Shown: positions 682-54,030, counted from the first letter of the stretch. The stretch: 57,307 nt of DNA from an uncultured Gammaproteobacteria bacterium (GCA_964364425.1 CAYIMB010000003.1:1-57307); one strand, 5' to 3'. The notes: a model not told the origin generated them from the letters alone. Numbers and translations are program-made.

Positions 682-726
682 GAAGTAGCGCCCCATCAAT
701 TAAGACGAGGCGCTCTTCAAGGTGCA
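682..726 (-). terminator. TGCACCTTGAA motif plus terminator-like hairpin downstream of 730..1545
   Basis: Minus strand reads TGCACCTT-GAAGAGCGCC...GGCGCTACTTC-TTTT. Confidence 0.65.
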
Positions 727-729
727 AGG

Positions 730-1545
730 CTATTTTTCCTGGTGATCTTCCATGATCTTGTCCATCACGGCGAAGTGCCTGTTCAGGTCTTCAAAGCAGG
801 CAGCCTGTTCCACCCGGGGGCACCGCACGCGGTCGAAGCGGATCAGGAGTGTTGCGCCGGGGAGACGCCAGGCGTCCCACACCGTGTGCACCGGCCGGTT
901 GAACGAGACGGTGCAGCGGATCCAGCTCGCCAGGGGTAGGGCTTGCACCAGCGCGTGTGTTCCGCGCCCCCGGACCGGCATGGTGAAACGGTGTCGGCCA
1001 AACAGGTGCAGCCGACCACGATCCCCCACCTCCTTCCAGGCCGCCTTGTGGCGCGCGGGAGTGAAGCGGTTTTCGTCTGAGAAGATGGTGAGCACACTCC
1101 GGTACGGCAGGTCCTCCACGGCCTGGTGCAGTTCTTTTACCGCCACAGCACCCACCTCACGGTTGATGATGGTGCCGCCAATCCCTTTGAACCCCCGCAC
1201 CATGGGGTGTGAAGAGCGCGCCACCGGAGAGAAGAAATACCCGCTGAACACTTGGTTCACCGCGTAGACCCACTCGGACAGCGCCGGCGTGGGTGGGTGG
1301 TTGCCAAACACCACACAGACCTCGTTGGGCGCCATTCCCTCACCGTTGAACTCCATCTTGAGCCTGGCCCCCAGGATGCCCCGGTAGATCAGCCAGTGGG
1401 CCACTAAGGCCCAGCCCTTGGCCGGCCAGTTGGGTCGGTGTCCGGTCAGCAGCGGAGTCATGACCGCCAGGGTGAACCAGAAGCTGGTGTTGAGTAGCCC
1501 GACCAGGATGGCCAAGCCAGCGCGCAGGATGTTGATGATGAGCAT
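730..1545 (-). CDS. Divergent PlsC/lysophospholipid acyltransferase-like membrane protein (GC-rich solo gene)
   Basis: N-terminal TM helices; FGNH motif; IFSDENRFT resembles FPEGTRFT; GGAGGT RBS. Confidence 0.6.
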   Translation of the reverse strand: MLIINILRAGLAILVGLLNTSFWFTLAVMTPLLTGHRPNWPAKGWALVAHWLIYRGILGARLKMEFNGEGMAPNEVCVVFGNHPPTPALSEWVYAVNQVFSGYFFSPVARSSHPMVRGFKGIGGTIINREVGAVAVKELHQAVEDLPYRSVLTIFSDENRFTPARHKAAWKEVGDRGRLHLFGRHRFTMPVRGRGTHALVQALPLASWIRCTVSFNRPVHTVWDAWRLPGATLLIRFDRVRCPRVEQAACFEDLNRHFAVMDKIMEDHQEK

Positions 1546-1563
1546 GGGAAACCTCCGGAGGCT

Positions 1564-1593
1564 ATCTAAGCACTCCGTTCACGGGTATGTCAA
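1564..1593 (-). promoter_or_regulatory. Sigma70-type promoter of 730..1545
   Basis: TTGACA-18 bp-TTAGAT on the minus strand, followed by GGAGGT and ATG. Confidence 0.5.
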
Positions 1594-1718
1594 AACCCTT
1601 ATGAAAGTCGATTTTCACGTTGACTACACATTTTCATATATGGTCAGAGCACCACTACGACAGCGGCATTCCGCCGCGTGATTCGTTATCCTTGCAGGCA
1701 ACTGCACTAGGAGGTCCA

Positions 1719-2090
1719 TTGGAACCCATTCCGATTCTCAAGTCCCTGGCCAACACCCGGTCGCAGATCACGCTGTTCAGCGTGGCGTTCTTCCTCTTCT
1801 ACTTTGGTCAGAAGATGGGGAACAACTTTGAAGGGGTCAGCAAGATCCCGGTGCGCGAGACGTTCAACACCGTCTTCGGACTGTCGGCTGCGGACGCCGG
1901 CGCTCTGCTCACCTCCATCTCAGTGGGCTGGTACATCAAGGCTCTGCTGGGAACGGTGACGGACGGCCTGCTGCTGTTTGGCTACCGGCGTAAGTCCTGG
2001 CTGCTCATCTCCAACCTGGGCGCCACGGCGGCCTGGTTCTGGCTGGCGTCCGTTGACCCTTTGGGGAAGATGTCCGCTACTGTTCGTTTT
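1719..2090 (+). pseudogene. 5' fragment of a folate-biopterin (BT1/FBT) MFS transporter, open in frame into parA
   Basis: GGAGGT RBS plus TTG start; WYIKALLGTVTDGLLLFGYRRKSWL matches the FBT-family PWxIKPxxGxxSDxxxxFGYRRxxY motif; only about 3 TM helices before composition switches. Confidence 0.6.
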
Positions 2091-2123
2091 GAAAATCGAA
2101 CTAAAAATGGTAGAGTGTGGCGC

Positions 2124-2897
2124 ATGGGAAGAGTTATTGCGGTGGTCAATCAAAAAGGCGGTGTGGGGAAAACCACCACCGCGGTCAATTTAGCGAGCTG
2201 GCTGGCGCGCAAAGGAAAATTTGTCCTGATGGTAGACATGGACCCACAAGCCAACGCCACCAGTGGATTTGGGATAGAACATGAACAAGTGCCGCGTTCG
2301 GTGTATGACGTGCTAGTGGGGCAAGCGGCTATGCGTGATGCGGTTATGGATACGCTCATAGAAGGTTTGCGTCTGGTGCCAGCCAAACAAGATTTGGCCG
2401 GCGCCACGGTTGAACTAGTGCCGGTGGAACACAGAGAATATCGTTTAAAACAAGCGGTGGCAGAAGTCTCAAGCCAATATGATTATGTGTTTATAGATTG
2501 CCCGCCGTCACTGGGACTACTCACCATTAATAGCTTGGTGGCCTCCAAGGAGGTGTTAATTCCTGTGCAATGCGAGTATTATGCCTTGGAAGGATTAGGA
2601 CAGCTGTTGTCTACAGTTGAGCTAGTCCGTGAGCATCTTCATCCGGAATTACAGATTTTAGGCGCGGTGCTCACCATGTATGACCGGCGCAATAATTTAT
2701 CAGATGAGGTATTAAAACAGATTCATCAATTTTTCCCGAACAAGGTGTTTCGCTCCGTGATTCCACGCAATGTGAAATTGGCTGAAGCGCCGTCACATGG
2801 CAAACCAATTAGCGAATATGACCCAGGCTCTAAGGGCGGCCGGGCGTATGAAACTTTAGCCCAAGAAATTATTGAAGGAGAACAACCATGGTACTAG
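2124..2897 (+). CDS. parA: Chromosome partitioning ATPase ParA/Soj
   Basis: NQKGGVGKTT deviant Walker A, DMDPQAN, IDCPP, LAEAPSHG; probable start ATG 2124. Confidence 0.95.
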   Translation: MGRVIAVVNQKGGVGKTTTAVNLASWLARKGKFVLMVDMDPQANATSGFGIEHEQVPRSVYDVLVGQAAMRDAVMDTLIEGLRLVPAKQDLAGATVELVPVEHREYRLKQAVAEVSSQYDYVFIDCPPSLGLLTINSLVASKEVLIPVQCEYYALEGLGQLLSTVELVREHLHPELQILGAVLTMYDRRNNLSDEVLKQIHQFFPNKVFRSVIPRNVKLAEAPSHGKPISEYDPGSKGGRAYETLAQEIIEGEQPWY

Positions 2898-3745
2898 GCA
2901 GAGGATTAGGCTCGTTAATTCCACCCCGCTCGGGATTTGGGAATATTCGTTCCCAAGAGCTGGCCAGTCCTGCAGTCCGGGATCAAGTGAAGTTTGTCCC
3001 GGTGACGCAGATAGTTCCTAACCCGCAACAACCGCGGCATGTGTTTGTAGCGGAATCTTTAGATGAGTTGGCGGCCAGTATTAAAGCCCATGGTGTGCTG
3101 CAGCCGTTGTTGGTGACGGAAGTGAAGCCAGGCGAGTATCAGTTGATTGCTGGTGAGCGGCGTCTACGTGCTTCTAAAATAGCAGGACTGGAGTCTGTTC
3201 CGGTGATTGTCAAAGACGTGAGTGAATTGGAGAAGCTGGAGTTGGCGGTAATTGAGAACATTCAGCGGTCTGACTTAAACCCTATAGAACGAGCTGAAGC
3301 CTATAATAAACTACTTCATGAGTTTGGAGTGAGTCAGGCAGACGCAGCTAAGCGACTTGGTATCAGTCGTCCACAACTGGCCAACAGCATTCGTTTGCTG
3401 CAACTTTCGACAGAAATTCAAACAGCATTATCTGAAGGAAAAATTACGGAAGGACATGCTAAGGTGTTATTAGGCTTGGACACGGTAGAAGAACAACTCC
3501 GCCTATTTAATGCCATTTTAAATGACAGATTGACGGTGCGTGATACGGAACAGCGCGTGTCTGTCACGGTGTCCAAACCAAAGCGCAGTCAATTTGTTAG
3601 CCCACGTATCTCTGGTTTAGAAGATGCCTTGCGCGAATCTTTAGGTACCAAAGTCAAAATTCAGCACCGCGGTGGGAAAGGCACTATTTTGGTTGAATAT
3701 TATTCTGATGAGGAATTAGACCGGCTGGTGAAAAAGTTAACCTAA
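2888..3745 (+). CDS. parB: ParB/Spo0J partitioning protein
   Basis: LGRGL N-terminus, GERRLRA, ENIQR, HTH SRPQLANSIRLL. Confidence 0.95.
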   Translation: MVLGRGLGSLIPPRSGFGNIRSQELASPAVRDQVKFVPVTQIVPNPQQPRHVFVAESLDELAASIKAHGVLQPLLVTEVKPGEYQLIAGERRLRASKIAGLESVPVIVKDVSELEKLELAVIENIQRSDLNPIERAEAYNKLLHEFGVSQADAAKRLGISRPQLANSIRLLQLSTEIQTALSEGKITEGHAKVLLGLDTVEEQLRLFNAILNDRLTVRDTEQRVSVTVSKPKRSQFVSPRISGLEDALRESLGTKVKIQHRGGKGTILVEYYSDEELDRLVKKLT

Positions 3746-3748
3746 GAT

Positions 3749-5359
3749 ATGGCCAAACGGAGGGTGAAAAAAGTAGCTCGTGCATCTGTTGCGCACGCGC
3801 CTGTGGTTGGAACGAATTGGTTAAGTTGGTTTTTGTTGGTTGGAGTTGGCCTGGCCATGTTAGGGGTGACAGGCGCTAATTTTATTTCAAGTGAACTCAC
3901 AAAAACAATTCTGCTCACTTGGGTGATAGTGTTTGGGTTGGTGTCTTGGTTCAGTTTGTTGTTGTCCCGCGGGGCAGTCAGTTGGAGCTGGCATTGGTTG
4001 GATTTGGCGGTGTTGTTTTGGTTTGGAGTGAATGTGGCCGCGGCTTTGCATTCAGATTTACCCCGAGTAAGTGTCTGGGGTTTTGGTGATTTATACGGAG
4101 ATGGCTTGATGGCCGCTACAGCAGCTGTTGTGCTGTTTGTGTTGATGGTGAATATTCCAGGTCGATTTTCTCTCAAACACTGGCTGTGGTTGGTTGCCGC
4201 ACTTGGCGCCCTTGGTAGCTTAGGAGTATGGATTACCACTGTGAGTCCAGTTACCGTAAGTTTTATTTCCCGCCTGGCTAGTCAAACAGGGGTCTTTTTA
4301 GCGGTGTGTGTTCCGGTGGTTTTGTCTCTACGACTTAGCTTGCAATGGGCCTGGGAACGCTGGGTAAGTATGGGCGTGTTAGTTCTGTGTATGACCGCGC
4401 TGATTTTCTTGGACCAGTCCCAGGCTTGGTGGGTATTATTGGTGGGATTAGCCATTTGGTTACTGGGTCAACGGCTCATTACCTCAACTCAGCTAGTGCA
4501 AAAATCTATGCTGGTTGCTGGGTTGATGGCCTTTGCAGTTATTAGTTTATCCTTAGAGGTAGGGGTTTTCCAAACCGACATCTTTTTATCTACCGCTGAC
4601 ACTTGGCAACTCATTGCACAACAGTTGCATAACCCAGGACTGGGAGTTGGACAACAAAATTTTGTATTGTTATCTGCCGCACAGAACCCAACTGCTACAG
4701 CTTTTGTCACATTGGCCAGTTCATCTGTGCTGTCATGGTTGGTGGGATTGGGTATCATTGGAGTAGTTGCCTGGGGTTCCGTTGTTGGATGTATGTTGTG
4801 GTGCTTGTTGAAAGAGTGGCGTCGCACCAATCCAACTCAGGAACAATGGGGAGCTTTTTCAGCTTGGGTAGCTGTAGTTGTTGCCGCTTTTATTTTGCCT
4901 GTAGGTCTTGCTAGCCTGGTGCTGTTCTGGGTACTTCTGGCTGCCTTACACCGTTCTCTGTGGTCACCGGCTGATTGGTCTATCAAATCTGAGCGTCTGA
5001 TCACCACGTTTTCTATGCTCGCACTGGCTGTTTCAGCAGTTTTCTTACTCTTCTCACTTTGGGTTGGTGGGCGCTTACTCCTGGCTCAGTATCACTACTG
5101 GACAGCCCAAGAGTTATATGCCCAGGGGACGGACGCAGCAGAAGTAAAAATTGAGTTGCAGGCCGCGCAACGGCTGGCTCCTCAGGCAGCGGAATATAAT
5201 TTTGCTTTGGCTGAGTTGTTGTTGATTCAGGAAGAGGCTACGCCGCAAGGGCTGATAGAACCAATTCAAAATCTTATTCGTGAGGGCTTACGTACGGCGC
5301 CGTATCAACTCCAGTGGAAAAATATTTTGGAACAACTTACCCAATCAACGGAGGAGTAG
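3749..5359 (+). CDS. Polytopic membrane protein, O-antigen-ligase-like, with C-terminal TPR-like helices
   Basis: About 12 hydrophobic segments; GLGVGQQNF loop; helical C-terminus. Confidence 0.5.
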   Translation: MAKRRVKKVARASVAHAPVVGTNWLSWFLLVGVGLAMLGVTGANFISSELTKTILLTWVIVFGLVSWFSLLLSRGAVSWSWHWLDLAVLFWFGVNVAAALHSDLPRVSVWGFGDLYGDGLMAATAAVVLFVLMVNIPGRFSLKHWLWLVAALGALGSLGVWITTVSPVTVSFISRLASQTGVFLAVCVPVVLSLRLSLQWAWERWVSMGVLVLCMTALIFLDQSQAWWVLLVGLAIWLLGQRLITSTQLVQKSMLVAGLMAFAVISLSLEVGVFQTDIFLSTADTWQLIAQQLHNPGLGVGQQNFVLLSAAQNPTATAFVTLASSSVLSWLVGLGIIGVVAWGSVVGCMLWCLLKEWRRTNPTQEQWGAFSAWVAVVVAAFILPVGLASLVLFWVLLAALHRSLWSPADWSIKSERLITTFSMLALAVSAVFLLFSLWVGGRLLLAQYHYWTAQELYAQGTDAAEVKIELQAAQRLAPQAAEYNFALAELLLIQEEATPQGLIEPIQNLIREGLRTAPYQLQWKNILEQLTQSTEE

Positions 5360-6815
5360 ACGGAAGTTGACGTTTGTTCACGTACTCTTTGATTCGTTCT
5401 CGGGCTGAAGAAGTTTTGACAAATTCTAGCCAGTCAGGGTTTGGTCCTTTGCGATTTTTATCTGTGAATACTTCAACCATATCACCGCTGCGTAGTTTTG
5501 TGTTTAAACTGGCAATTTGATCATTTACTTTTGAGCCAACGCATTTGTCACCCAGGTCAGTGTGAATACGATAGGCAAAGTCCACAGGCGTAGCATCTTC
5601 TGGTAGCTCAATCACGTCGCCGATTGGTGTGAACACAAAAATTTGATTAGGAAAGATATCTATTTTCAAGGAATCCAAATAATCCTGCTCCGTCTCAGCG
5701 TGCTTTTGAATATCTAGAAGCTGTTGCAACCAGTTGTACTTTTGTCGGTCCATGTCTGACAAGGCATGCCTTTCCTTATACAGCCAATGAGCGGCAATTC
5801 CGTACTCATCTTCTTCGTGCATGTCTTTGGTTCGGATTTGTATTTCAACAATTTCTCCCTTGGGGCTGAATACCGTGGTGTGGATGGATTGGTAGCCGTT
5901 GGGTTTAGGCGAGGCAATATAATCCTTGATTCGTCCTTTCAGCGGATGACAAATTTCATGCACAATGCCTAAGGCTTCGTAACAGTCCACCACATCTTCC
6001 ACCATAATCCGAATAGCCACCAGGTCGTAGATTTTTCCTACGTCGCGGTTATGCCGTAGCAACTTTTGATACAAACTAAACAAATGCTTGGCCCGCCCGT
6101 GAATATCGGCCTTGAGCCCATGCTTGTCCATCTCTACGCGCATAATTGCAATCATTTCATCTACCACACGTTTTTTCTCTTCAAAGCGTGGTTTTACTTT
6201 TCTGATCAGCCATTTATATTCATCAGGAAAAACGTAGGGAAAAGACAAGTCTTCTATCAAACCTTTCACTTCACCCATGCCGAGCCGGTTGGCTATTGGG
6301 GCGAAAATTTCCATGGACTCCATGGCAATGCGTTTTTGTTTTTCTGGGGGGAGTGCGGCTAGCGTGCGCAAGTTGTGAATCCGGTCGCAGAATTTGATCA
6401 CAATAGTACGAATATCCTGCGCCATGGCAATAAACATTTTGCGCAGATTCTCCACGTACTGATCATTTCCACGGTATTTGAGTTTTCCTAATTTAGTGAT
6501 TCCTTCCACCATGAAACGAATCTCATGTCCAAATTCTTTTTCTATATCCTCAAGTGTTTTGTCTGTATCTTCTGGGACGTCATGCAGGAGACCGGCAGCA
6601 ATGGCTTCATCATCCATGTGTAAGTCTGCTAGTAAGTCCGCCGTAGCCATGGGATGGATAATGTAGGGATCACCGGATTTTCTGAGTTGGTCACCGTGCG
6701 CTGCGTAGGCAAATTCAAACGCCCGTTTGATTAATTCCAAATTCGCTTTAGGATTACTGCCCGCAATTTTATTGAGTAGCGGTTGAATTTCGATTTTCAT
6801 TTTCGGTGGAGTCAT
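5337..6815 (-). CDS. rel: RelA/SpoT homolog (HD, synthetase and TGS domains; no ACT)
   Basis: RKSGDPYIIHP, LLHDVPED, KPNGYQSIHT, AAHWLYK, TPVDFAYRIH. Confidence 0.93.
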   Translation of the reverse strand: MTPPKMKIEIQPLLNKIAGSNPKANLELIKRAFEFAYAAHGDQLRKSGDPYIIHPMATADLLADLHMDDEAIAAGLLHDVPEDTDKTLEDIEKEFGHEIRFMVEGITKLGKLKYRGNDQYVENLRKMFIAMAQDIRTIVIKFCDRIHNLRTLAALPPEKQKRIAMESMEIFAPIANRLGMGEVKGLIEDLSFPYVFPDEYKWLIRKVKPRFEEKKRVVDEMIAIMRVEMDKHGLKADIHGRAKHLFSLYQKLLRHNRDVGKIYDLVAIRIMVEDVVDCYEALGIVHEICHPLKGRIKDYIASPKPNGYQSIHTTVFSPKGEIVEIQIRTKDMHEEDEYGIAAHWLYKERHALSDMDRQKYNWLQQLLDIQKHAETEQDYLDSLKIDIFPNQIFVFTPIGDVIELPEDATPVDFAYRIHTDLGDKCVGSKVNDQIASLNTKLRSGDMVEVFTDKNRKGPNPDWLEFVKTSSARERIKEYVNKRQLPSTPPLIG

Positions 6816-6865
6816 GTGGGTAATTGTTAGGCCTAGTGCTGTATTCCGTCAATGGCCGTTAAACG

Positions 6866-6921
6866 GAAGCAGCGCGACGAATCTCTGTGGTTAGAGACGC
6901 GTCGCGCTGGGTGAAGGTGCG
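6866..6921 (-). terminator. CGCACCTTCAC motif plus GC-rich hairpin downstream of 6953..7291
   Basis: CAGCGCGACG...CGTCGCGCTG 10-bp stem with inner TCTCT/AGAGA stem. Confidence 0.6.
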
Positions 6922-6952
6922 GTGACGGACGGCGGGCTGGGTCCTGATCAGG

Positions 6953-7291
6953 TCACGGGGCGCCGGGCGCCTTGTGCCAGTTGATGAAGGCCTCCAGCTC
7001 GTCCGGGGCCTTGTTGTTGCCGGTCATCTGGTCGTGGATGACTTTGGACCAGTCGACCTGCTTGCCGCAGACGAGCAGGATGAAGGTGGCCGTGGCGGAG
7101 CCCAGGGTGGTGAAGTTCACCACCACCCGACCGGCGGGAAGCCAGACCGCTACCTCGCTGACGGCCTGGTCCTGGTCGTTGTAGATGGAGGGGTCTTCGC
7201 CGTGTTCGGCGGGGACCAGGGTGATGCGCGTGCCGCGGATGCGGAGCGCGAAGACGGGATCACGGGCGAGTAGAGACAGAAGCCTGGACAA
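6953..7291 (-). CDS. Hypothetical protein (GC-rich solo gene)
   Basis: High-GC3 codons, own promoter, AAGGGG RBS, TTG start, downstream hairpin. Confidence 0.65.
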   Translation of the reverse strand: MSRLLSLLARDPVFALRIRGTRITLVPAEHGEDPSIYNDQDQAVSEVAVWLPAGRVVVNFTTLGSATATFILLVCGKQVDWSKVIHDQMTGNNKAPDELEAFINWHKAPGAP

Positions 7292-7309
7292 ACCCCTTGA
7301 GGTGGCGCC

Positions 7310-7338
7310 ACTGTAAAGAAGACCGCCTGAGATGTCAA
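7310..7338 (-). promoter_or_regulatory. Sigma70-type promoter of 6953..7291
   Basis: TTGACA-17 bp-TACAGT. Confidence 0.7.
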
Positions 7339-7356
7339 TTTTATAAAAATAAGACC

Positions 7357-7392
7357 TGTGGAAAAGTTCTGCGTGCGCGGGGGTTATCCACA
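7357..7392. promoter_or_regulatory. Inverted pair of DnaA-box-like 9-mers
   Basis: TGTGGAAAA (7357-7365) and perfect TTATCCACA (7384-7392). Confidence 0.45.
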
Positions 7393-7413
7393 GACCGCGC
7401 TTCTCTATTAAAA

Positions 7414-9588
7414 CTAATCCGTAGGCGCAGCCGTTTTGTATTCACATTCCTTGTTGGAACACACCACTGTTCCTTTTGTTCCGTAGCCTAACAAAGATTG
7501 ACACCGCGGACATTTTTCACCCGTGGGTTTATTCCACATAGCAAAATCACACTTTGGATATTTGTTGCAAGCGTAAAAGTTTTTTCCGCGTTTGGAACGT
7601 TTTTCTGCCAGCTCACCTTCACTACATTTAGGACAGGGGATACCAGTCAGTTTATCTATTTTTTTAATACCTTTACATTCCGGATATTTAGTACAACCCA
7701 AGAATGTTCCAAACCGACCGCGCTTGACCGTCATGGGTGCGCCACACAAGTCGCATTTTTCATCCGTCACTGGATCTGGTGCAATATTTCCAGACTCATC
7801 CAACTGTTTAGTGTTGCGGCAGTCTGGAAACCCGGTGCAGGCCAAAAATTTTCCAAACCGTCCAAACTTAATGATCATGGGTTTGCCGCACTTTTCACAT
7901 ACTTCTGAAGTGGCCTCCTCATGTTTTTTCACTTCCTCCTGTTTTTGCATAAGATGTTGGTGGAACGGTTGATAAAATTGTTTGATGATTGGTTGCCATG
8001 GTTGTTGTCCTTCAGCCACGCGGTCTAAATCAGTTTCCATTTTAGCCGTGAAATCAAAGTCAACCACCTCAGGAAAGTGTTCCACCAACAAGTCATTCAC
8101 AATAAATCCAATCTCTTCTGGTTTGAGTTTTTTTTCTTCTTTCACTACATACCCACGGTCCACAATAGTAGAAATAGTTGGCGCGTAGGTAGAAGGACGA
8201 CCAATTCCTTTTTCTTCCAAAGCTTTAACTAAGGAAGCTTCAGTGTAGCGTGGTGGTGGCTCAGTAAAATGTTGTTCAGAGGTGATGGATTCTGTGACCA
8301 CCGCGTCACCAGCTTGCACGGCAGGGAGAGAATGTTCAGTCACGCGTTCTGGGTAGACATTCATCCAGCCTAAGAGTTTGACGCGGGACCCGTTCGCTCT
8401 GAAAATCGACTTACCTGCGTCTCCAATATCAATAGCAGTTTGTTCAATCACCGCATTTTCCATTTGTGAGGCTACGGCGCGTTTCCAAATGAGGTCGTAG
8501 AGTTTCCATTGACCGGGTTCTAAAGTCCCTTGCATGGATTCCGGAGTCTGGGCCGCTTCAGTTGGGCGCACGGCTTCATGCGCTTCTTGGGCTCCTTTTC
8601 TACCTTTGAACTGGCGAGGAGTGAACGCCTTGGCTCCAAATTTTTCTGTAATGTAGGCTCCAGCGTCCGTGCGGAATTTTTCCGCTAAGTTCACGGAGTC
8701 TGTACGCATATAGGTAATGTGTCCAACTTCATACAGCTGCTGAGCCAACACCATGGTTTGTTTAGATGAAAAACCCAAACGGTTGTTGGCTTCTTGTTGG
8801 AGTGTAGAGGTGGTGAAGGGAGCTGCGGCGGAACGTTGTTGTTCTTTAACGCGGATTTCTTTCACCGTCCATGCACCAGCCAGCATTTTTTCCACCATCT
8901 CTTTGGCTGGAGCTTCAGTGGTCACGCCAAGTTTTTCTAATTTCTTGTCTTCATATACGGCAAGCTGTGCTTCTAACTTTCCGTTGTCTTTGGTAGTGAA
9001 TACTCCCTCAATGGTCCAGTATTCTTGAGGTTTGAACGCTTGAATTTCCCGTTCGCGTTCAACTACAAAACGTACGGCAATAGATTGCACCCGTCCGGCA
9101 GATAATCCTTTATAAATTTTCTTCCATAAGAAAGGGGAGAGTTCATACCCCACCAAGCGGTCTAAAATACGGCGAGCTTGTTGAGCGTCTACTAAACGTA
9201 AGTCGATTGGCCGGGGATTTTCCAACGCGTGAGTAATGGCGTCTTTGGTAATTTCATGAAACACAATCCGCTGGACTGACTCCGGTTTCATGCCTAACAA
9301 TTCTGCCAAATGCCAGGAAATGGCTTCTCCTTCGCGGTCTTCATCTGTTGCAAACAAAACTGCGTCAGCAGTTTTGGCGATTGCCTTGAGTTCTTTTACT
9401 CTTTTCTTCGCTTTGAGCGGAACTAAGTACTGCGGAGCAAAGTCATGTTCAATATCAATCCCCATTTTGCTCTTGGGTAAATCACGCACATGACCAAACG
9501 AAGCTTCCACCACGTAGTCCTTGCCCAGAAAGCGCGAAATAGTTTTTGCTTTGGTTGGGCTTTCTACAATAACTAATTTTTTTGCCAT
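7414..9588 (-). CDS. topA: DNA topoisomerase I with C-terminal zinc ribbons
   Basis: IVESPTK, DREGE, SAGRVQ, ITYMRTDS, GIGRPSTY, CxxC repeats. Confidence 0.97.
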   Translation of the reverse strand: MAKKLVIVESPTKAKTISRFLGKDYVVEASFGHVRDLPKSKMGIDIEHDFAPQYLVPLKAKKRVKELKAIAKTADAVLFATDEDREGEAISWHLAELLGMKPESVQRIVFHEITKDAITHALENPRPIDLRLVDAQQARRILDRLVGYELSPFLWKKIYKGLSAGRVQSIAVRFVVEREREIQAFKPQEYWTIEGVFTTKDNGKLEAQLAVYEDKKLEKLGVTTEAPAKEMVEKMLAGAWTVKEIRVKEQQRSAAAPFTTSTLQQEANNRLGFSSKQTMVLAQQLYEVGHITYMRTDSVNLAEKFRTDAGAYITEKFGAKAFTPRQFKGRKGAQEAHEAVRPTEAAQTPESMQGTLEPGQWKLYDLIWKRAVASQMENAVIEQTAIDIGDAGKSIFRANGSRVKLLGWMNVYPERVTEHSLPAVQAGDAVVTESITSEQHFTEPPPRYTEASLVKALEEKGIGRPSTYAPTISTIVDRGYVVKEEKKLKPEEIGFIVNDLLVEHFPEVVDFDFTAKMETDLDRVAEGQQPWQPIIKQFYQPFHQHLMQKQEEVKKHEEATSEVCEKCGKPMIIKFGRFGKFLACTGFPDCRNTKQLDESGNIAPDPVTDEKCDLCGAPMTVKRGRFGTFLGCTKYPECKGIKKIDKLTGIPCPKCSEGELAEKRSKRGKNFYACNKYPKCDFAMWNKPTGEKCPRCQSLLGYGTKGTVVCSNKECEYKTAAPTD

Positions 9589-9621
9589 GGTCAGCGTTAT
9601 ACAACCTTCCCTCTCAGTCTG

Positions 9622-10494
9622 TCAACTTTTCTGAACTCGTGCAGTCCACTTTCCAGCCACGCGCCAGACTTGTCCTGCCAACTCTAAACTACTCAACTCA
9701 TGCAAAATCTGAGCCACAGATTTTCCACTTTTTTGGACCAACTCTTCTGTGCTTAACGCCTCCTGAAGAAGTAGTTCGATTATCCCGTGCCCCTCAGGAT
9801 TTTTTGCTAACGGTAGCGCTTGCTGTCCCGTGAGACCTAACCACTGGAGTGCGTCTTCTGGTTCACATAACACCTCAGCTCCTTGTTGCAAGAGTTGGTT
9901 TGTTCCGGCCCATGCTGCGTTGAGACTGGGACCGGGAAAAGCGGCGACTGATTTTCCTAATTGTAAGGCGTGGTCAACGGTAATTAACGCTCCTGAACCA
10001 ACCGGTGCTTGAATGACAATGAGATGGCTAACGAGGGCGGCAATAATTCGGTTGCGTGCGGGGTAGGTGTACTTGCCGGCCGGATAGGTAGGTGGGTATT
10101 CACTGAGGAGTAGACCACCATGGGCTGCAATTTGCTGGGCCAGTCCCAGGTGTTGTTGTGGAGTAATGGTGCGGTCAGCCAGTCCGCTGCCTAAGACAGC
10201 AACAGTATGGCCACCTGCTTTCAGTGCACCGTGATGTGCTTCGGCATCTATTCCCAAGGCCAGACCACTGACTACGGTGCAGCCTGCTTGGGCCAGTAGT
10301 TCGCCAACTCGCCGGCTTAACCGCCGTCCGGTAGGATCTGCCCGGCGGGTTCCCACTATGCCGACTAGCGGATGCTTGTCTTGCAGCAAATGAAACTGCC
10401 CGCGGAAAAATAATTCCTTAGGCGGATCTACTAAGTGCCACAAGTCTGCAGGGAAGAGGGGATCAGCCCGTCCAATGTGTGAAATGTCTGTCAT
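9622..10494 (-). CDS. dprA: DNA-processing protein DprA/Smf
   Basis: IVGTRR, VSGLALGID, RNRIIA, SGALIT; adjacent to topA. Confidence 0.93.
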   Translation of the reverse strand: MTDISHIGRADPLFPADLWHLVDPPKELFFRGQFHLLQDKHPLVGIVGTRRADPTGRRLSRRVGELLAQAGCTVVSGLALGIDAEAHHGALKAGGHTVAVLGSGLADRTITPQQHLGLAQQIAAHGGLLLSEYPPTYPAGKYTYPARNRIIAALVSHLIVIQAPVGSGALITVDHALQLGKSVAAFPGPSLNAAWAGTNQLLQQGAEVLCEPEDALQWLGLTGQQALPLAKNPEGHGIIELLLQEALSTEELVQKSGKSVAQILHELSSLELAGQVWRVAGKWTARVQKS

Positions 10495-10577
10495 AGTGAG
10501 TAGGCTAGCAGAGGGCTTTTTCGTGACAAGAGGGAATGGTATACTGCCTGTGGAGAACTAATTAGATAATCCAGATT

Positions 10578-10895: not shown

Positions 10896-10937
10896 AAAGA
10901 ATTGCTCCAGATAGGCGGTTTGCGCTATACTGTGTGC

Positions 10938-12956: not shown

Positions 12957-13406
12957 ATGACTACAGTGACTCTGTCCCCCGTGATCCTGGAGCCGCCTTC
13001 CACGGGCTTCGTACGTGACAAGCGTTCCGAAGGTTGGGACCTGCTGCAAGCGGGCTGCCAGGTCGAGGGCGAATCCGTCCTGGAGCTGGCCGGATTCCTG
13101 CTCCTGGGTGAGGAATACGTTAACGGCCGGGTCATGCGTTACCGCTCCCTGGAGATGGGTGGCCGCACGGGCCAGCATCACGCCGAGCGTATGCTCGTCC
13201 AGGTTGAGGCCATCCCCACGGAGTGGCGCGAGTTCTACCTGGCGTTCCCAGACACCCTTTGGCGGCGCCCCGGCCGCTGCCTCTTTGTCCCGTGCCTGCG
13301 CTGGCGCGACGGCAGGTGGGTGCTTAACTTCCGCTGCGTCGTCCGCGACGCCCGCTGGAACGACGACCATCGGGTCGTCCGCGTCTGCAAGCAGCCTGGG
13401 TCCTAG
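12957..13406 (+). CDS. Hypothetical protein, DGR-target/C-type-lectin-like C-terminus (GC-rich solo gene)
   Basis: AAGGAGGT RBS; C-terminus VPCLRW...WVLNF...W.DDHRVVRV. Confidence 0.65.
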   Translation: MTTVTLSPVILEPPSTGFVRDKRSEGWDLLQAGCQVEGESVLELAGFLLLGEEYVNGRVMRYRSLEMGGRTGQHHAERMLVQVEAIPTEWREFYLAFPDTLWRRPGRCLFVPCLRWRDGRWVLNFRCVVRDARWNDDHRVVRVCKQPGS

Positions 13407-13435: not shown

Positions 13436-13506
13436 TGCACCTTCAACACCCCTGTTTCGGAGGAATCCCTCGCGGGATTCTACTGGACAGGGGGGGTGTT
13501 GTGTTT
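13436..13506 (+). terminator. TGCACCTTCAAC motif plus long hairpin and T-rich tail
   Basis: CAACACCCCTGT...GAATCCC-TCGC-GGGATTC...ACAGGGGGGGTGTTG-TGTTTT. Confidence 0.65.
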
Positions 13507-16500
13507 TAAGAGGTCTGTTGCAAATCGTTTAGCTGTTTTATCCAACGCATGAGAGTCTTGACCCAATCCTCACCTAAGTCCTCTTTATATACCCGCACCG
13601 TCCGTTCATCCACGCGTTCAAACGGTTGTTCAACAAATCCATACGCTATTGGATTCATGGTTTTGATGATAATTTTCTCACTCGGTAAACCATTATTCTT
13701 GTTAGGATAATTGGTATCTATAGATACAATCTGAGAGGATTGAATGAGTAAACGAATTTCAAACAGATCAAATAATTGTTTAAACTCATACGCTTTGGGT
13801 TCCCAGGTGTGCCTGGCTTTGCGTAACTCTTCTTCATCACGAATATTTGCAAATTGTTGATAGAGTAAAATTCGTTCACCTTCATCCGGCACCACATCTT
13901 CAGGGATGGTGGTGGACAGGGGAATATCAATCGGTACATCTCTAATGAGTGGCTGCATTTTCCCTTGCTTGAGTTCTGCCACAGCAGAGGAGAGGAGGCG
14001 AGAGTAGTAATTCAGACCAATGGTTTCTGCGTGTCCATGCTGATTTTTACCCAAAATAGAACCAACGCCGCGAATTTCCATATCACGCATAGCCAGTTCA
14101 AATCCCACACCAAGCTCTTGTGCTTCTTCTAAAGCCTTCAGACGCATCTTGGCTTCATCTGTCAGATCACGCGAATGGTAAAAGAAATATGCATAGGCTT
14201 GAGTTGTCCCACGACCAATCCGGCCACGCAGTTGATGCAGTTGAGCCAGACCAAAGTTGGTGGCTCGTTCCACAATTAAGGTGTTGGCCTGCGGAATATC
14301 AAGACCATTTTCTATAATAGTAGAACAGACTAGGATATCCACCTGTTGGGTATCAAAAGCATGCATGACGCCTGCCAGTTCACTTTCTGGAAGCTGTCCA
14401 TGACCCACGCCAATCCGAACCGCCGGAAACCATTGTTGTAATTCATGAGCTTTGGCTTGAATGGTGTCTACGTCATTGTGCAGGAAATACACTTGACCTT
14501 TGCGGGCAAGCTCACGGGTGATGGCTGACTTCACTAATTCAGAGTCGTACGGAGTCACAAAGGATTCAATTCCCAGACGTCCGGGTGGAGGAGTGGTGAT
14601 GGTGGAAATGCCTCGTACGCCACTGAGCGCCAAGTGCAAAGTGCGGGGGAGAGGTGTGGCACTGAGAGTCAGTACGTGTGCTTCAGAGCGGAGTTTACGC
14701 AAGACTTCTTTTTGCTTCACACCAAAGCGTTGTTCTTCATCTATGATGACTAAACCCAAGTTTTTGAATTTTACGTCTTTGGACAGAATCCGGTGTGTGC
14801 CAATGACAATATCCACATTTCCGGCGGCCAACCTCTTTACAGTGTCTTTTTGATCTGCGGCGGTACGGAAGCGGGAAAGAAGTCCTACGTTGAACCCGGT
14901 GTTGGCCAAACGACGCTCAAATGTATCAAAATGTTGCTGAACCAAAATGGTTGTTGGTGCTAGGACGGTCACCTGCATGCCTTGTGCCAACACACGCACT
15001 GCAGCCCGCAGAGCCACTTCTGTTTTTCCAAACCCCACGTCACCACATAACAAGCGGTCCATAGGTGTGTCCTTGGCTAAGTCTGCATACACCGCTTCAA
15101 GTCCAGTCTGTTGATCTTCCGTGAGTTCATACGGGAAACCAGCATTCACTTGTTCCTCAAGCTCTTGGTGTGGAGTGATGGGCCTGGCTTTGGCTAATTC
15201 CCGTTGGGCATAAATCTTGAGCAACTCCTGAGCTAGCTCAAGCGTGTGTTTTTGCACATGACGCACGGCCGTTTCCCAAGTGGCATCATGCAGTGAATGC
15301 ACTTTGGGGTGAGCTGAACCTACATATTTTTCTACGCGGTCGGCTGTTTCAGCCGGAACATACAACTTATCTTTGCCGGCGTATTCCAAAATTAAATAAT
15401 CCCGTTTCATCCCATTCACTTCCATCACTGTTGTTCCGCTAAACCGCGCCACACCGTGATACACATGCACCACATAATCTCTAGGAGTAATGGACAAGAC
15501 TAGGGGTGATCCAGCACCAGCTGTTTTTGAGATCGATTTTCTGGTGTTGGTATGTTTCTTCACCCACTCCGCACCAAACACATCCGCATCACCTATTAAA
15601 CAAAAATTTCGTTCCTGGTCAGTAAACCCTTCTAATTCCAAGGTAGTTTCCCGTACATCCAAGCTCACAGATTCGGCGAGCGGTTTGAGTTGTTTGTGTG
15701 TTGCGTCTGAAAACTGAGTGGCTACCCAACGCCGTTCAAATTGTTTGACCGTCCGAAAAAGTTCTTCTAATCCAACGCTGGAAGGTGGAAGTCGGCGTTG
15801 GTGAGTAGCCATCACCCCATCCATCACAAAATGAGACAAGGTCAGCACCGCCGCACGTTGCGTGGGAAGGGGAGTATCTTCTTCATGAATAATGAGTCGG
15901 TCTCGGACATTATCCAAGAGTGTATATGTTCCTTTTCCGGCCAAAGAGCATGGGTAGAAGGTCACCGCGCTAGTGACTGCCGCCGCATCTCCTGACTGAC
16001 TGATTCGTTCAATACTTCCAATCCGGTCATAGTCCCACTGAATGCGGAAATGATTGTTGAGTGATCCAAACACATCAACCACATCTCCAATCACAGAAAA
16101 GGTTCCTACTTGCTCTGCCTTTTTCCCCACCCGGTCATACCCAGCTAAGCTGAGTCGTTCGACCACATTACTTTGAGCCAGTTTAGTATCAACGGCTAAC
16201 TGGAAAGTCAGTTCACGCACGTCACGGGGCGAAACGGTGGAGGTATCTAAAGAGTCCGGGTAAGCCAGCAGTACATCTACCCCAAGCGCCGCACCAGGCG
16301 CCGCATTTGTCCATTCTTCTATATCTACCGAGGGTTGAAAAAACAGCAACGCTTGCCGCAACCAGTCGGCCTCCTTTTTACTCTTGGCCAAATACAAAAC
16401 CCGCCTGTATTTCAATACAGGGGGGAGGGTCTGGCTGAGAAAAAAGACGATTCCGGTCAGATGCGCGAACCCGCCAATCACCTTTTCTTGACCCACAGCC

Positions 16501-51470: not shown

Positions 51471-51472
51471 GT

Positions 51473-53035
51473 ATGCTGCATCAAATCGCAAAGGGGATAT
51501 ACGGGTTAGCTTTACTCTCCTTAGTAGGTTTGTTTGCGGTTCCGGTTGATGCCGCAGTATCAACCATTACCACTGAATTTTCTGGCTCGGGGGACGAGCT
51601 GGTGTATGCCGCACGGATACGCGGCAGCAGCACAGATCCAGGTGGAGAAATGGCCATTGCCTACCCCAGCGAGGATCAATAGACCATATTTGTAACTGCG
51701 TATGATTCGTTGGAAACTTGGAGCGAAGTTACTTCTATTGATAATGAACCAGTGAGCGGGGCTTCCCAGGTATCCATGCGGCAACTTGGGATTTTGCCAG
51801 TCCGGACATATTGGATTGTGCACTGGGTGACTGATCATTTTGCATCTGACGGCACATTCGTACGTTCTACGTATCATGTGTGGGAAGTCGAGAGGGACGG
51901 TTCTCTAAATGACAGTGGAGTAACCACGGGGACTTGGGATGAAGAGAAAATTAAGAGTCATGCTACTGAAGCGGGGGAAGCTGTATTAGAAATAATTCCT
52001 GTTTCGCAACCGGATTATAATGGATATATTGTCATGTGGAGGGATGAGAATAAGATATATGCTAACGATTGGTGGATAGATTGGTATGAAGGGGATACAA
52101 AATTTCAACTTGATCATGGTGATATAACCGCAGGTTTGTTTCGGCAATCTTACTCAATCATTCCTTATACAACATCTCAATACGGTTATGCTCGTATTCC
52201 GTTTTTTGTTGCCTCACAAAACGAAGGTCAACTCCGTTATTCAAAATTTTCAGAAGGAACGAATGAAGTGGAAGCTGATTTTACAAAGACTTGGAATTTA
52301 GAAAATGCAGAAGGAGAAATTCTTGCCCCTTTGTTAGGCAGTGGAAAGCAATCTCATATATTTTTTAAGGATGGTGATACATTAGAATGGAAACAATTTG
52401 CTTCAAATGGAGATAAGTTGGATCAAGAGACAATCGCAGCGATAGATGGCCTAAGTGCGGAACAAATGAACGCTGTGTACAACCCTTATGGGGACGGTCA
52501 ATTGGTTGTTTCCTGGATCACGGGAGAAGGAGAGGATGCTTCCATCTATTATCGGTATTGGACTCCAAACACAGGGTGGAATGATGTGACTCTACTGGAT
52601 CAAAATATTGCTACGGGTTTGAAACCTTTGGTTCAAGGGTTTAAAAATGGGCGACTGCAAATCAGCTGGAAAGACCAAACTAATGCCGTATATGAGGTAA
52701 CGTATACTCCTTCGACCAAGACTTGGAGTGAAGCGCAGCAGGTGTTTTCCAATTCTTCCAATGTGCAGATAAAAAAACTGGAAAATCGATCTCTGGTTTC
52801 TGGCTCAGGAAAAAAATCTCTGATGTACATTCAAAAAAAGAATCGGCGTTATGTGAGACGTTGGAATATGGGATTAGGTCACCAGTTTGAGGATTATGCC
52901 TTACCTGAAGGATTTAATTTGCTTGAGCACACTGTTGTGAAACGGAAGGATTTCACCCCCTGGTATTTTGCCCTGGTGAAAGATGGTAAAACTCTTAAAA
53001 GTGTGATAGCAGAGGAAAACAGTCTGTTTGAGTAG
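51473..53035 (+). pseudogene. Secreted propeller-like protein interrupted by one in-frame TAG (51680-51682)
   Basis: ORFs 51473..51682 and 51710..53035 share a frame; signal peptide is in the first part. Confidence 0.7.
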
Positions 53036-53097
53036 ATATTTTGGTGTGGACTTGCGGGGTTCAGTGTGAGTGCTAGTATGTCTGGGCACTTGAACAA

Positions 53098-53170
53098 GTT
53101 CGTTTGGGAGGCAATGAGGTGTGAATCCTCAACAGTGCCGCTACCGTAAAGTCGGAAAACTCCAACGGAC
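53098..53170 (+). ncRNA. Compact cobalamin riboswitch
   Basis: GGGAG..GAGGTGTGAATCCTC-AACAGTGCCGCTACCGTAA-AGTCGGAAAA resembles the Cbl core and B12 box; closing stem GTTCGTTTGGGAG/CTCCAACGGAC. Confidence 0.75.
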
Positions 53171-53354
53171 AACATCAACTCATCTCCCGAGCAGGAGAGT
53201 GGAGGTCATATACCAAGAAGCCAGAGCTGTCTTGGTTCGCAGATCGAATTGCCCCAGATTTGCCGACCCCATAGCTGTGGTTTTTTGATTTCTATCCTCC
53301 TGCTCGTGAGAGAGCCTGTTGTCCCTGTCCCTGAACCCTGTCCCGAGGTCTGTC

Positions 53355-53960
53355 ATGTTCCGTTTTCTGTTTTTGGACCTGCTTCGCCCCTTGCGCCTGT
53401 TCCGGGCGCGTCTCCTGGTTCCGGAGGCTCACGCCCCCAGCTGCACCCCGCGCCAGGACTTTTACGTCCAGGCCCAGGTCCAGCCGGACGGCCGCCCCAA
53501 AGACCCCACCCGCCGCGACTCCTTCCGGGCCACGCTGGGCGGCTTCCCGCTGGTGTTGTTCGCCCTGAGCGCGGCCGCTGCTTCCACGCCCGGCTGCGTT
53601 CCCGGCCAGTCCAGCAGCCTCGCCGTGACCGAGGTGGACTCCTTCACCGTGGGCCAGACCAGCCAGGACGGGATGACCTTGGAGCTGGCGCTGATGAAGC
53701 GCGCCGACTCTCTGGGCGTCCAGCTCCGTTGGCATGACTCCGTGGCGCCGGATGCCGTGGACTGCGAACAGTCTATTGGCGGCCCGCGCCTGGTCCGCTG
53801 GGACTACCGCGAGGGCTCGTCCACGGACGCGCGGCACTACCTGTTTGAGGTGTACCAGGAGGACGGCGAGCCAATTGGCAACGAGCCCCAGCTCACGACC
53901 GTGCTTCGCGCCGGCTACACCGTGGTGGTGCTGGAGGTCAGCTCCGCCTCGTCCGTCTGA
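53355..53960 (+). CDS. Putative exported/lipoprotein, transcobalamin-like (DUF4430-like) C-terminus (GC-rich)
   Basis: GAGGT RBS; TRRDSF, hydrophobic stretch and PGC; downstream of the Cbl riboswitch. Confidence 0.55.
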   Translation: MFRFLFLDLLRPLRLFRARLLVPEAHAPSCTPRQDFYVQAQVQPDGRPKDPTRRDSFRATLGGFPLVLFALSAAAASTPGCVPGQSSSLAVTEVDSFTVGQTSQDGMTLELALMKRADSLGVQLRWHDSVAPDAVDCEQSIGGPRLVRWDYREGSSTDARHYLFEVYQEDGEPIGNEPQLTTVLRAGYTVVVLEVSSASSV

Positions 53961-53976
53961 GCCTGCCCGGCTCGTC

Positions 53977-54030
53977 TGCACCTTCAACCCCTGCTTGCTC
54001 CGTACTATCCAAGTGAAGTACGGAGCAAGC
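53977..54030 (+). terminator. TGCACCTTCAAC motif plus 14-bp perfect hairpin
   Basis: GCTTGCTCCGTACT...AGTACGGAGCAAGC. Confidence 0.6.

Follow-up and report, generated by a model that had tools for sequence, protein, structure and literature searches.

GC-rich genes of a groundwater bacterium, represented by a 1.17-Mb Patescibacteria MAG with 47% GC, share a dedicated 3' signature: the heptamer GCACMTT lies within 100 nt past the stop codon in 30 of 64 GC-rich genes, compared with 10 of 1035 other genes (Fisher p = 2e-32), with the gene set and starts taken from a crude ORF-based call rather than an annotation. We tentatively propose, with a probability of roughly 45%, that this tag marks the 5' boundary of terminator modules specific to the lineage, which have been copied among the ends of GC-rich genes and are read by some factor. 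What was observed directly is where the tag sits, which structures follow it, exactly where the modules begin and end, that unrelated genes carry a common module, and that the tag is confined to this lineage.

The window, i.e. the whole stretch of 57,307 nucleotides that was analyzed, contains four such genes, and their features are listed here.

682..718, minus strand: terminator-like hairpin of gene 1, related to hairpin family A (see below), with a T-rich tail at 677-681
717..725, minus strand: tag GCACCTTGA of gene 1, 4 nt past the stop
730..1545, minus strand: GC-rich gene 1, 271 aa, GC 0.63, GC3 0.82, without a Pfam or PHROGs family
6870..6909, minus strand: hairpin of gene 2, with a second small hairpin at 6844-6868
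6912..6920, minus strand: tag GCACCTTCA of gene 2, 32 nt past the stop
6953..7291, minus strand: GC-rich gene 2, 112 aa, GC 0.66, GC3 0.89
7310..7338, minus strand: predicted sigma-70-like promoter of gene 2, 10 of 12 consensus matches
12957..13406, plus strand: GC-rich gene 3, 149 aa, one of seven clustered paralogs
13437..13445, plus strand: tag GCACCTTCA of gene 3, 30 nt past the stop
13444..13507, plus strand: hairpin and T-rich tail of gene 3
53098..53170, plus strand: AdoCbl-II (B12) riboswitch aptamer, Rfam RF01689, 40.7 bits against a gathering score of 36.5
53355..53960, plus strand: GC-rich gene 4, 201 aa from the ATG, GC 0.68, GC3 0.88
53978..53986, plus strand: tag GCACCTTCA of gene 4, 17 nt past the stop
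53993..54030, plus strand: hairpin of gene 4, with a T-run only about 17 nt further on

The first-pass annotation had described these four as unrelated GC-rich genes with SD-like sites, each followed soon after the stop by the same motif and a strong hairpin, and had seen the motif nowhere else. All of this is borne out. GCACCTTSA occurs four times in the window, solely at the four listed sites and at the short distances from the stop given above. The genes have a GC content of 0.63-0.68 and a GC3 of 0.82-0.89, SD-like sites were found at GC-rich genes, none of the four proteins matches another, and comparison with Pfam and PHROGs returned no family for any of them. The hairpins behind genes 1 to 4 have minimum free energies of -30.9, -34.7, -35.8 and -25.7 kcal/mol, with z-scores of -7.1, -5.8, -2.9 and -6.5. 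Taken alone, the count of GCACCTTSA is only marginal, because 3 of 100 shuffles of the window reach four or more copies (mean 1.19), and GCACMTT is not over-represented across the window, with 14 copies found against 19.2 expected. The signal in the window is thus the placement of the motif, not its abundance. The window neighbors of the GC-rich genes are core genes.

The stem of gene 1, the top terminator-like site in positions 1-14000, begins 7 nt past the G of GCAC. Homologs of this gene in other assemblies form a graded series from 83% down to 43% identity, with those of closer relatives at 64-83%. Gene 2, whose promoter is the top promoter-like site in 1-14000, is flanked by topA (7414-9588, minus strand) and relA/spoT (5337-6815, minus strand); it fills a gap that measures 598 nt here versus 96-240 nt in at least seven relatives' loci. 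Gene 3 sits between an MNT/HepT pair and mfd, and further partial DNA copies of it were found at contig ends. In all six aligned paralog copies of gene 3 the tag is kept as GCACCTT or GCACATT and similarity stops precisely where the terminator tail ends; two copies are 5'-truncated. Gene 4, which lies directly 3' of the AdoCbl-II aptamer, had no match in 31 other genomes of the order and is an ORFan at that level.

Across the genome, the scan that the first-pass annotation had proposed was strongly positive and revealed a class of GC-rich solo genes with a common 3' signature; the initial observation is therefore real, but it captured only part of the pattern. The exact 9-mer GCACCTTSA is found in the 3' flanks of 8 of 64 GC-rich genes and 2 of 1035 others. 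In a de novo screen of 7-mers in 3' flanks, GCACCTT ranked first (21/64, versus 7/1035 in other flanks and 3/429 in coding chunks matched for GC) and GCACATT second (9/64 versus 3/1035, and 0/429). The tag is restricted to the sense strand, as its reverse complement occurs in only 1 of 64 GC-rich and 28 of 1035 other 3' flanks, and enrichment in 5' flanks is weak (6/62 versus 25/1019). The strict heptamer is missing from 34 of the 64 GC-rich genes; a relaxed pattern recovers 48 of them, yet also 189 of the 1035 others. The class itself comprises about 64-76 genes, mostly ORFans (57 of 76 have no Pfam family), with a GC3 of about 0.84 and third positions poor in A (0.06) and T (0.10). GGAG precedes the start in 46 of 63 members versus 343 of 1024 other genes, and the units, scattered singly in the genome, have their own predicted promoters. 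The class thus has a wider grammar of its own in SD, codons and promoters, and its codon usage, SD strength and terminator style look foreign.

A strict scan detected 105 terminator-like sites in the genome. Of the 22 sites behind GC-rich DNA, 13 have GCACNT no more than 14 nt ahead of the stem, compared with 1 of the 83 others (p = 5e-10); the ordinary host terminators are of the plain A-tract, hairpin, T-tract type. The tag is unpaired, and the stem begins 7-8 nt past its G in 16 of 32 instances, whose best folds have a median of -41 kcal/mol. These 32 instances precede at least 20 unrelated stem sequences, indicating that the tag is kept where the hairpin is not. The hairpins span 28-120 nt and are mostly single-copy, the largest family having about 9-10 copies. 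All four window sites have a stable GC-rich stem-loop at the end of the transcription unit. An interrupted T-tract follows the stem at gene 1, at gene 3 and across family A; a direct T-run is missing at two of the four window hairpins, those of genes 2 (no clean run directly behind the stem) and 4. No inverted partner of the tag was found 3' of the hairpins, where T-rich tails follow instead.

Family A comprises nine copies of one hairpin on unrelated genes, including those for malate synthase, ProRS, a LuxR-type regulator and ORFans. In an alignment of seven of the nine copies with two related modules, similarity begins exactly at GCAC and stops at the T-rich tail. The fifth base of the tag toggles between A and C within families, and a few copies carry degenerate tags. 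Conservation of the tag could be due in part to shared descent of the modules. The family-A pattern had no match in GTDB species genomes or in metagenome contigs; viral matches lacked hairpins and were dismissed as chance.

Comparison with relatives separates the tag from the gene class. In G019, a genome of the same order, the GC-rich class is present, none of its 19 members carries the tag, and they end in plain hairpin-plus-T7 terminators; another Patescibacteria MAG likewise has the class without the tag. Judged from G019, the class can thus exist without the tag. The G019 ortholog of ProRS is 66% identical, shares the upstream neighbor and is also GC-rich, but it has a different terminator, implying that the family-A module on ProRS is a recent replacement in the lineage. 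At least one carrier of the tag, ProRS, is thus an old resident, syntenic and persistently GC-rich, and since its bias is kept at 66% identity, its composition is maintained rather than ameliorating.

Considering these findings together, Y-GCAC-(C/A)-TT may be the unpaired 5' tag of long, lineage-specific intrinsic-terminator modules, ordered as tag, GC-rich hairpin of 28-120 nt and interrupted T-tract, that would close the transcription units of the GC-rich class. RNA polymerase would read through the ORF, the tag and the hairpin in turn, the hairpin and U-rich tail would halt transcription, and the 3' stem-loop left behind would protect the mRNA. A trans-acting factor would recognize the tag, single-stranded at the base of the stem. 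This factor might govern what becomes of hairpin-capped mRNAs, as an RNA-binding protein or an endonuclease, or it might be the apparatus by which tag-plus-hairpin modules are copied between GC-rich gene ends. Termination, mRNA protection, the reader and the mode of spread are what we infer from the sequences; neither a mobilizing enzyme nor a candidate for the reader protein emerged from the analysis.

Rho-independent terminators consist of a GC-rich stem-loop and a T-rich tail that end a transcription unit, and some copies of terminator-like repeat elements of the SPRITE type have spread to unrelated gene ends. The modules resemble both in their stem-loops, in part in the T-rich tail, and in having copies on unrelated gene ends, but to our knowledge no sequence is conserved ahead of the stem in ordinary terminators, whereas here the tag outlasts the hairpin sequence and the host's own ordinary terminators are tagged in 1 of 83 cases. 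Phage morons and horizontally acquired genomic islets bring their own promoter and terminator along with the gene, are atypical in base composition and are inserted between conserved genes. The GC-rich units are likewise autonomous and atypical in composition, but they lack a phage context (none of 47 proteins matched PHROGs), their neighbors are core genes, ProRS is old and syntenic, and the gene 1 homologs grade from 83% to 43%. In integrons, attC is a structure-defined hairpin with a short conserved core behind promoterless ORFan cassettes, and thus likewise resembles a short tag joined to a structure-conserved hairpin downstream of ORFans; however, we found no integron integrase, array or inverted core pair, and the units lie apart from one another, with promoters of their own. 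The closest parallel in architecture, and in architecture only, is with the tagged REPs (GTAG, CGTC), which are described by Di Nocera et al. (2013, PMC3733652) as carrying a short conserved unpaired tag at one palindrome end, falling into several hairpin families per genome, lying mostly downstream of coding regions and probably being transcribed as RNA elements, with no known dedicated transposase for the CGTC super-family. The elements found here also have an unpaired tag at a palindrome end, mostly behind ORFs. They differ from that description in their heptamer, GCACMTT rather than GTAG or CGTC, and in their hairpins, which are 28-120 rather than 20-40 nt long and mostly single-copy rather than high-copy; they also occur only behind GC-rich genes, and, unlike for the GTAG REPs, no RAYT (Y1 transposase) was found in the MAG.

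The first-pass annotation had offered two functional readings, and the one that likened the motif to a NusB/NusE boxA modulating termination can hardly be right. It is favored by no more than a loose likeness to the quoted consensus and by NusB being encoded in the genome, by an ordinary gene outside the GC-rich class. The organism's own 3267-nt rRNA locus, spanning leader, 16S and spacer, contains no GCACMTT; boxA is expected in a promoter-proximal position, ahead of the terminators that it overrides, but the tag is found at 3' ends directly before terminator-like hairpins (30/64, versus 6/62 at 5' ends), and G019 of the same order has the gene class with 0 tags in 19. A further suggestion is that the tag is the cleavage or binding site of a sequence-specific endoribonuclease or RNA-binding protein and that the GC-rich genes form a post-transcriptional regulon, in which cleavage just ahead of the protective hairpin would open the mRNA to degradation or free a 3'-derived small RNA. 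This overlaps with our preferred reading and claims function without module mobility. The unpaired, sense-strand tag at a fixed 7-8 nt from the stem, its retention over at least 20 unrelated hairpins, the codon and SD grammar of the class and the HepT-type RNase gene adjoining gene 3 all speak for it, and we regard it as somewhat unlikely rather than remote, given that no factor was found, that G019 has the same gene class without the tag, and that near-identical modules on unrelated genes require copying beyond selection. Import of all tagged genes from one GC-rich donor (bacterium, plasmid or phage) whose terminators carry the tag would account for the class-wide foreign look of codon usage, SD strength and terminator style, and malate synthase has its nearest relatives among GC-rich phyla, Acidobacteriota included. 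Yet these best homologs are just 55-58% identical, the family-A pattern is absent from the GTDB and metagenome collections searched and viral matches are spurious, PHROGs returned nothing, ProRS is old and syntenic, and the class occurs untagged in G019 and in the other Patescibacteria MAG, which makes a single donor highly improbable.

The second reading had taken the signature for the scar of an undescribed system that captures single-gene cassettes. In the form considered here, tag and hairpin would be a recombination site or its scar, resembling attC or tagged REPs, by which GC-rich genes or their 3' ends are captured or shuffled. Part of this stands, as gene 2 fills a gap that is short in relatives and hairpin modules recur on unrelated genes; carriers are mostly ORFans, module ends are sharp, and the short unpaired tag with a hairpin of variable sequence but conserved structure is reminiscent of tagged REPs (PMC3733652). 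The recombinase and partner site did not materialize. A PF00589 search of the MAG gave no integron-type integrase and two matches in all, a 154-aa fragment and an open frame of 332 aa that was taken to be XerC/D-like only on account of its length; PF01797 (Y1/RAYT) had no match at E <= 0.01, and no relaxase or Rep/Rep_trans was found. Markers put the completeness of the MAG at 99.8%, but its collapsed repeats are absent, and an enzyme could be missing for that reason. With no inverted tag partner, only weak 5'-side enrichment, dispersed units with their own promoters, a ProRS syntenic with its 66% identical relative and a gene 1 homolog series that fits long residence, we consider cassette capture quite doubtful. 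Copying of modules or whole transcripts via RNA by the genome's reverse transcriptase, with tag and hairpin as a 3' cis element comparable to the IMH-plus-hairpin of DGRs, appears slightly less probable still. The only RT of the genome lies on contig C11 inside a DGR, whose 119-nt VR/TR pair (85% identity; the search covered the C11 locus only) differs mostly at TR adenines. The DGR target and the six aligned gene 3 paralogs all have the tag plus hairpin, paralog copies stop at the terminator tail end, and G019, in a single comparison, lacks both an RT match and the tag. According to Guo et al. (2011, PMC3240598), the DGR target site is a hairpin/cruciform downstream of the gene 3' end whose structure, not stem sequence, matters, and in phage BPP-1 a foreign gene can be targeted with no more than the IMH and a hairpin of variable stem sequence. 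In that system the VR is followed at once by the hairpin; here, in the DGR target and the paralog family, the hairpin is 70-90 nt off, past the stop. Moreover, most tag carriers are enzymes or ORFans with no visible VR sign (malate synthase, ProRS, an oxidoreductase), the truncated copies are just two, and third positions are depleted in both A and T, leaving no adenine-specific trace.

Beside the terminator-module reading that we prefer, we consider it unlikely, though worth stating, that the tag and hairpin are the cis handle of an undescribed copy-and-paste system, acting via a DGR-type RT or via attC/REP-like single-strand recombination, that moves 3' modules, and perhaps entire transcription units, within a GC-rich gene set under separate control. 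If this were true, the tag, the strong SD and the GC-rich codons would constitute a second grammar of gene expression and exchange within a 1.17-Mb episymbiont genome.

The four copies of the nonamer GCACCTTSA that the first-pass annotation had seen behind GC-rich genes, each followed by a hairpin, were borne out: exactly these four occur in the window, all on the sense strand and 4–32 nt past a stop codon. The hairpins directly after the sites have energies of −25.7 to −35.8 kcal/mol, and three of the four are far better than shuffled controls. The genes have a GC content of 63–68% and a GC3 of 0.82–0.89 against a background of 47% GC, and the encoded proteins match neither one another nor any Pfam or PHROGs family.

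GC-rich genes of the window and elements beside them
28–645 (+): LAGLIDADG-like ORF, adjoining gene 1
730–1545 (−): gene 1
6953–7291 (−): gene 2
11993–12825 (+): MNT/HepT nucleotidyltransferase–RNase pair, directly upstream of gene 3
12957–13406 (+): gene 3
53098–53170 (+): AdoCbl-II (B12) riboswitch, directly upstream of gene 4
53355–53960 (+): gene 4, an ORFan
54074–54628: DUF6580 gene, 3' of gene 4

By itself the nonamer count is weak (shuffle mean of 1.19, with 3 of 100 shuffles reaching four), and the shorter form GCACMTT is slightly below chance in the window, with 14 copies versus 19 expected; the strength of the observation lies in the position of the sites, not in their number. Weaker matches to the riboswitch model were noted in four genomes of the same order ahead of DUF4430 (B12-binding-type) genes, which show no similarity to gene 4.

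The association with GC-rich genes held when the whole genome was scanned, as the first-pass annotation had proposed, and the test named there as refuting came out in its favour. The assembly, of which the window is contig C3, comprises 1.17 Mb in 41 contigs and is rated 99.8% complete, and about 8% of its DNA consists of genes with foreign-looking codon usage. A crude ORF-based set of 1107 genes was divided at GC ≥0.58 and GC3 ≥0.72, yielding 64 GC-rich genes (76 with a looser filter).

Motif counts within 100 nt 3' of the stop codon
GCACMTT: 30/64 GC-rich genes; 10/1035 other genes; p = 2e-32
Reverse complement of this heptamer: 1/64 GC-rich genes; 28/1035 other genes
GCACCTTSA: 8/64 GC-rich genes; 2/1035 other genes

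When all 7-mers of the 3' flanks were screened de novo, with 429 pieces of GC-rich coding sequence of matched composition as an additional control, GCACCTT ranked at the top (21/64 GC-rich flanks, 7/1035 other flanks and 3/429 coding chunks), followed by GCACATT (9/64, 3/1035 and 0/429, respectively). The consensus of 32 instances is Y-GCAC-(C21/A9/T2)-TT-(C/G/T)-(G/A)-A, then purines; the nonamer is the commonest variant of a broader tag. We rejected the idea that the tag is a direct repeat flanking the ORF, as it occurs in the 5' UTRs of only 6/62 GC-rich versus 25/1019 other genes and is no general feature there. In a search for an anti-tag small RNA, no convincing cluster of complementary sites was seen.

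The structure that follows the tag is terminator-like. The stem starts 7–8 nt past the G of GCAC in 16 of the 32 instances, the median of the best folds is −41 kcal/mol, and a 5' arm mostly opened by purines is paired with a 3' arm closed by pyrimidines and followed by an interrupted T-tract; in the window, genes 2 and 4 have no T-run directly after the hairpin. Because more than 20 distinct stem sequences among the 32 stand behind one tag, the tag is more constant than its hairpin. A strict scan, for which the basal stem had to be perfect over 8 bp and five or more of the next seven bases had to be T, found 105 terminator-like sites in the genome; of the 22 sites with GC-rich sequence in the upstream 300 nt, 13 have GCACNT no more than 14 nt before the stem, compared to 1 of the 83 others, the sole exception being located at a contig start. 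Ordinary genes in this genome end in plain terminators composed of an A-tract, a hairpin and a T-tract, often two-way and without the tag.

Several hairpins form families. One alignment was built from seven of the nine copies of one module family (family A) together with two related modules, and the genes ahead of the family-A modules are unrelated, encoding malate synthase, ProRS, a LuxR-type regulator, an inositol-phosphatase-like protein and ORFans. The likeness begins at the first base of GCAC and ends with the T-rich tail, the flanks being unrelated, and the loops contain nested extra hairpins. A similar boundary is found in the paralog family of gene 3 (seven clustered members, two copies 5'-truncated), where the likeness among six aligned copies stops at the last T of the tail. 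Scanning for the family-A pattern gave no match in the 31 other genomes of the order, in genome_contigs or in metagenome_contigs; viral matches (four and three) are without a hairpin and were dismissed as chance. Near the 3' end of gene 3, at window positions 13178–13285, one contig in each of two sequencing runs (X2 and X3) shows at least 17 differences over about 110 nt while matching elsewhere, which may reflect paralog copies or variable-region diversity.

The GC-rich class differs at its 5' end as well. GGAG precedes the best start in 46/63 GC-rich genes (73%) versus 343/1024 others (about a third), and GGAGG in 23/63 versus 83/1024, where one start-picking rule was applied to both sets and G-rich sequence may inflate the GC-rich figures. 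Clear sigma-70-like promoters precede several of the genes, whereas gene 4 follows the riboswitch instead. In the 16S gene, the 3' end (contig C34, rRNA locus L173, 2960–2990) reads ...GGATCATCTCCTTT, which places a T in the anti-SD where a C is usual among bacteria.

A supposed 5' promoter module shared by contig starts was discarded, as the 53–55-mers in question mark assembly junctions where an IS-like repeat begins or ends. Thirteen contig ends (e.g. C10, C11, C13, C21, C25, C31, C35 and C41; and C6, C10, C12, C25 and C34) carry one of two related 53–55-nt terminal sequences, which represent either end of an IS-like repeat absent from the MAG. The repeat is flanked by 8-bp target duplications, matching in three end pairs, and 10 of 13 flanks have at least 59% GC, so GC-rich genes have been the main targets of this element. 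Eight further contig ends are joined by a second IS-like end pair. At C25:1–150, the IS-like end is followed by a short GC-rich stretch and a family-A-type tag–hairpin module with no ORF ahead, probably a gene end severed by insertion.

Several readings of the tag had to be weighed. The genome encodes NusB; the proposal that the tag is a NusB/NusE boxA-like site is contradicted by its placement at 3' ends, by the lack of any copy in the rRNA leader, 16S gene and spacer, and by its absence in G019, a relative from the same order. The other proposal, that the tag is the scar of single-gene cassette capture, fits in part. Gene 2 lies between topA and relA/spoT, which are 598 nt apart here versus 96–240 nt in at least seven relatives' loci, and it is therefore an insertion at the level of the order, the comparison being one of order-level synteny in which TopA identity does not exceed 67% even for the best metagenome loci. 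Neither the expected machinery nor a second tag site was found. No integron-type integrase turned up in the MAG, where the recombinase matches are a 332-aa frame, assigned as XerC/D-like solely on length, and a fragment; a search of the MAG for Y1 transposase, relaxase and Rep_trans found none. As to a second site, the inverted tag is present in 1/64 of the 3' flanks, and there is only a weak excess of the tag in 5' UTRs. Among Logan contigs at 5–7× depth, one spans cassette 1 unchanged and none joins across any cassette; the listed Logan joints have short sides and are probably from other organisms.

It is also conceivable, as a minority reading, that the modules spread through RNA by way of reverse transcription. 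The MAG has one RT, which is part of a DGR (L178):

C11:17743–20600: GC-rich target gene, VR/TR pair, then the sole RT of the MAG

The VR/TR pair spans 119 nt at 85% identity with differences mostly at TR adenines, and the 3' end of the target gene has a spacer of about 70 nt, then tag and hairpin. Precedent comes from phage BPP-1, where retrohoming needs a hairpin of variable stem sequence beside the VR, and this hairpin together with the IMH suffices to retarget a foreign gene (PMC3240598). G019, in line with such a route but as a single comparison, has neither an RT match nor the tag. Most carriers, however, show no sign of a VR, the spacing is unlike that of BPP-1, and codon third positions are poor in A and T alike, the same composition on which we rejected adenine-specific mutagenesis as the source of the GC richness.

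The palindrome AAATCGATTT was tried as a cassette boundary and set aside as a genome-wide element, enriched 2–3 times beside GC-rich genes (17/64 vs 105/1035). This perfect 10-bp palindrome has 98 exact copies (1.5 expected) and 364 with at most one mismatch; window copies are at 16575, 43029 and 54347. Half of the exact copies fall in the intergenic 8% of the genome, often just 3' of terminators or 17–30 nt upstream of −35 boxes. Relatives' loci totalling 830 kb contain only three. The palindrome may be a regulator site or an uptake-signal-like element.

The age of the genes can be separated from that of the tag by ProRS, which is short in most genomes of the order:

C5:33914–35755: ProRS, long GC-rich form with editing domain, also in G019

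Among the 29 other genomes of the order with a match, the frame is 409–428 aa in 14 (35–42% identity); in four more of them it is 553–571 aa at 34–36% identity. The ortholog in G019, which belongs to another family, has 66% identity and the same upstream neighbour, and is likewise a GC-rich island (GC3 of 0.86 in about 45% GC). At least one foreign-looking gene has kept its composition since before the split of the two families; therefore recent import followed by amelioration, the usual explanation, does not fit. The G019 terminator differs: it has seven T in a row, and no more than a bare GCAC comes after the stop. In the 243 kb sampled from that genome GCACMTT is present in the 3' flank of 0/19 GC-rich ORFs, most of which end in plain hairpin-plus-T-run terminators. 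In another Patescibacteria MAG, a GC-rich island with malate synthase ends in an ordinary terminator, and the homolog of gene 1 in G003, another genome, is mildly GC-elevated at 30% identity and carries no tag; nine homologs of gene 1 in other assemblies (P0002–P0010) have identities of 83, 82, 78, 72, 72, 69, 64, 47 and 43%. The GC-rich class is therefore old and persists across the order, and the tag with its modules is a trait of this lineage; in the case of ProRS at least, an older terminator has given way to the module. One ORF of G019 whose 3' UTR looks alike proved not homologous to gene 3. Within the GC-rich class, C35:5998–8838 is a glyoxylate-shunt-like two-gene block of an isocitrate-lyase/PEP-mutase-family protein and malate synthase, a pair that to our knowledge is unusual in Patescibacteria; the closest malate synthase homologs (55–58%) come from Acidobacteriota, Gemmatimonadota, Dehalococcoidia and two Patescibacteria MAGs.

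In our preferred reading, held at a confidence of 0.45, the tag forms the 5' edge of terminator modules. Such modules would end and protect the mRNAs of GC-rich genes and would be copied from one GC-rich gene end to others, and a putative trans factor would read the tag, as RNA or DNA. The nearest described architecture is the tagged REP, a palindrome that carries a short unpaired tag on one side, lies mostly 3' of ORFs and occurs in several families per genome (PMC3733652). The present elements are unlike tagged REPs in the features that define that family, namely tag sequence, size, copy number and RAYT. We file them as terminator-like tagged hairpin elements, limited to a persistently GC-rich class and to one lineage.

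Genomes of Patescibacteria (CPR) are minimal, yet this one retains its genes of foreign-looking codon usage. A tag that marks the ends of the GC-rich class gives the first tangible lead to whatever treats these genes as a class, and tag–hairpin RNA or DNA is a testable ligand for finding the factor. The tag is also a marker for tracing the exchange of terminator modules between unrelated genes. Should it prove to be a mobility recognition site, gene ends would be shuffled by a new kind of process; an RNA fate signal would instead make these genes a rare example of a 3'-UTR regulon, in a bacterium for which next to no regulation is known.
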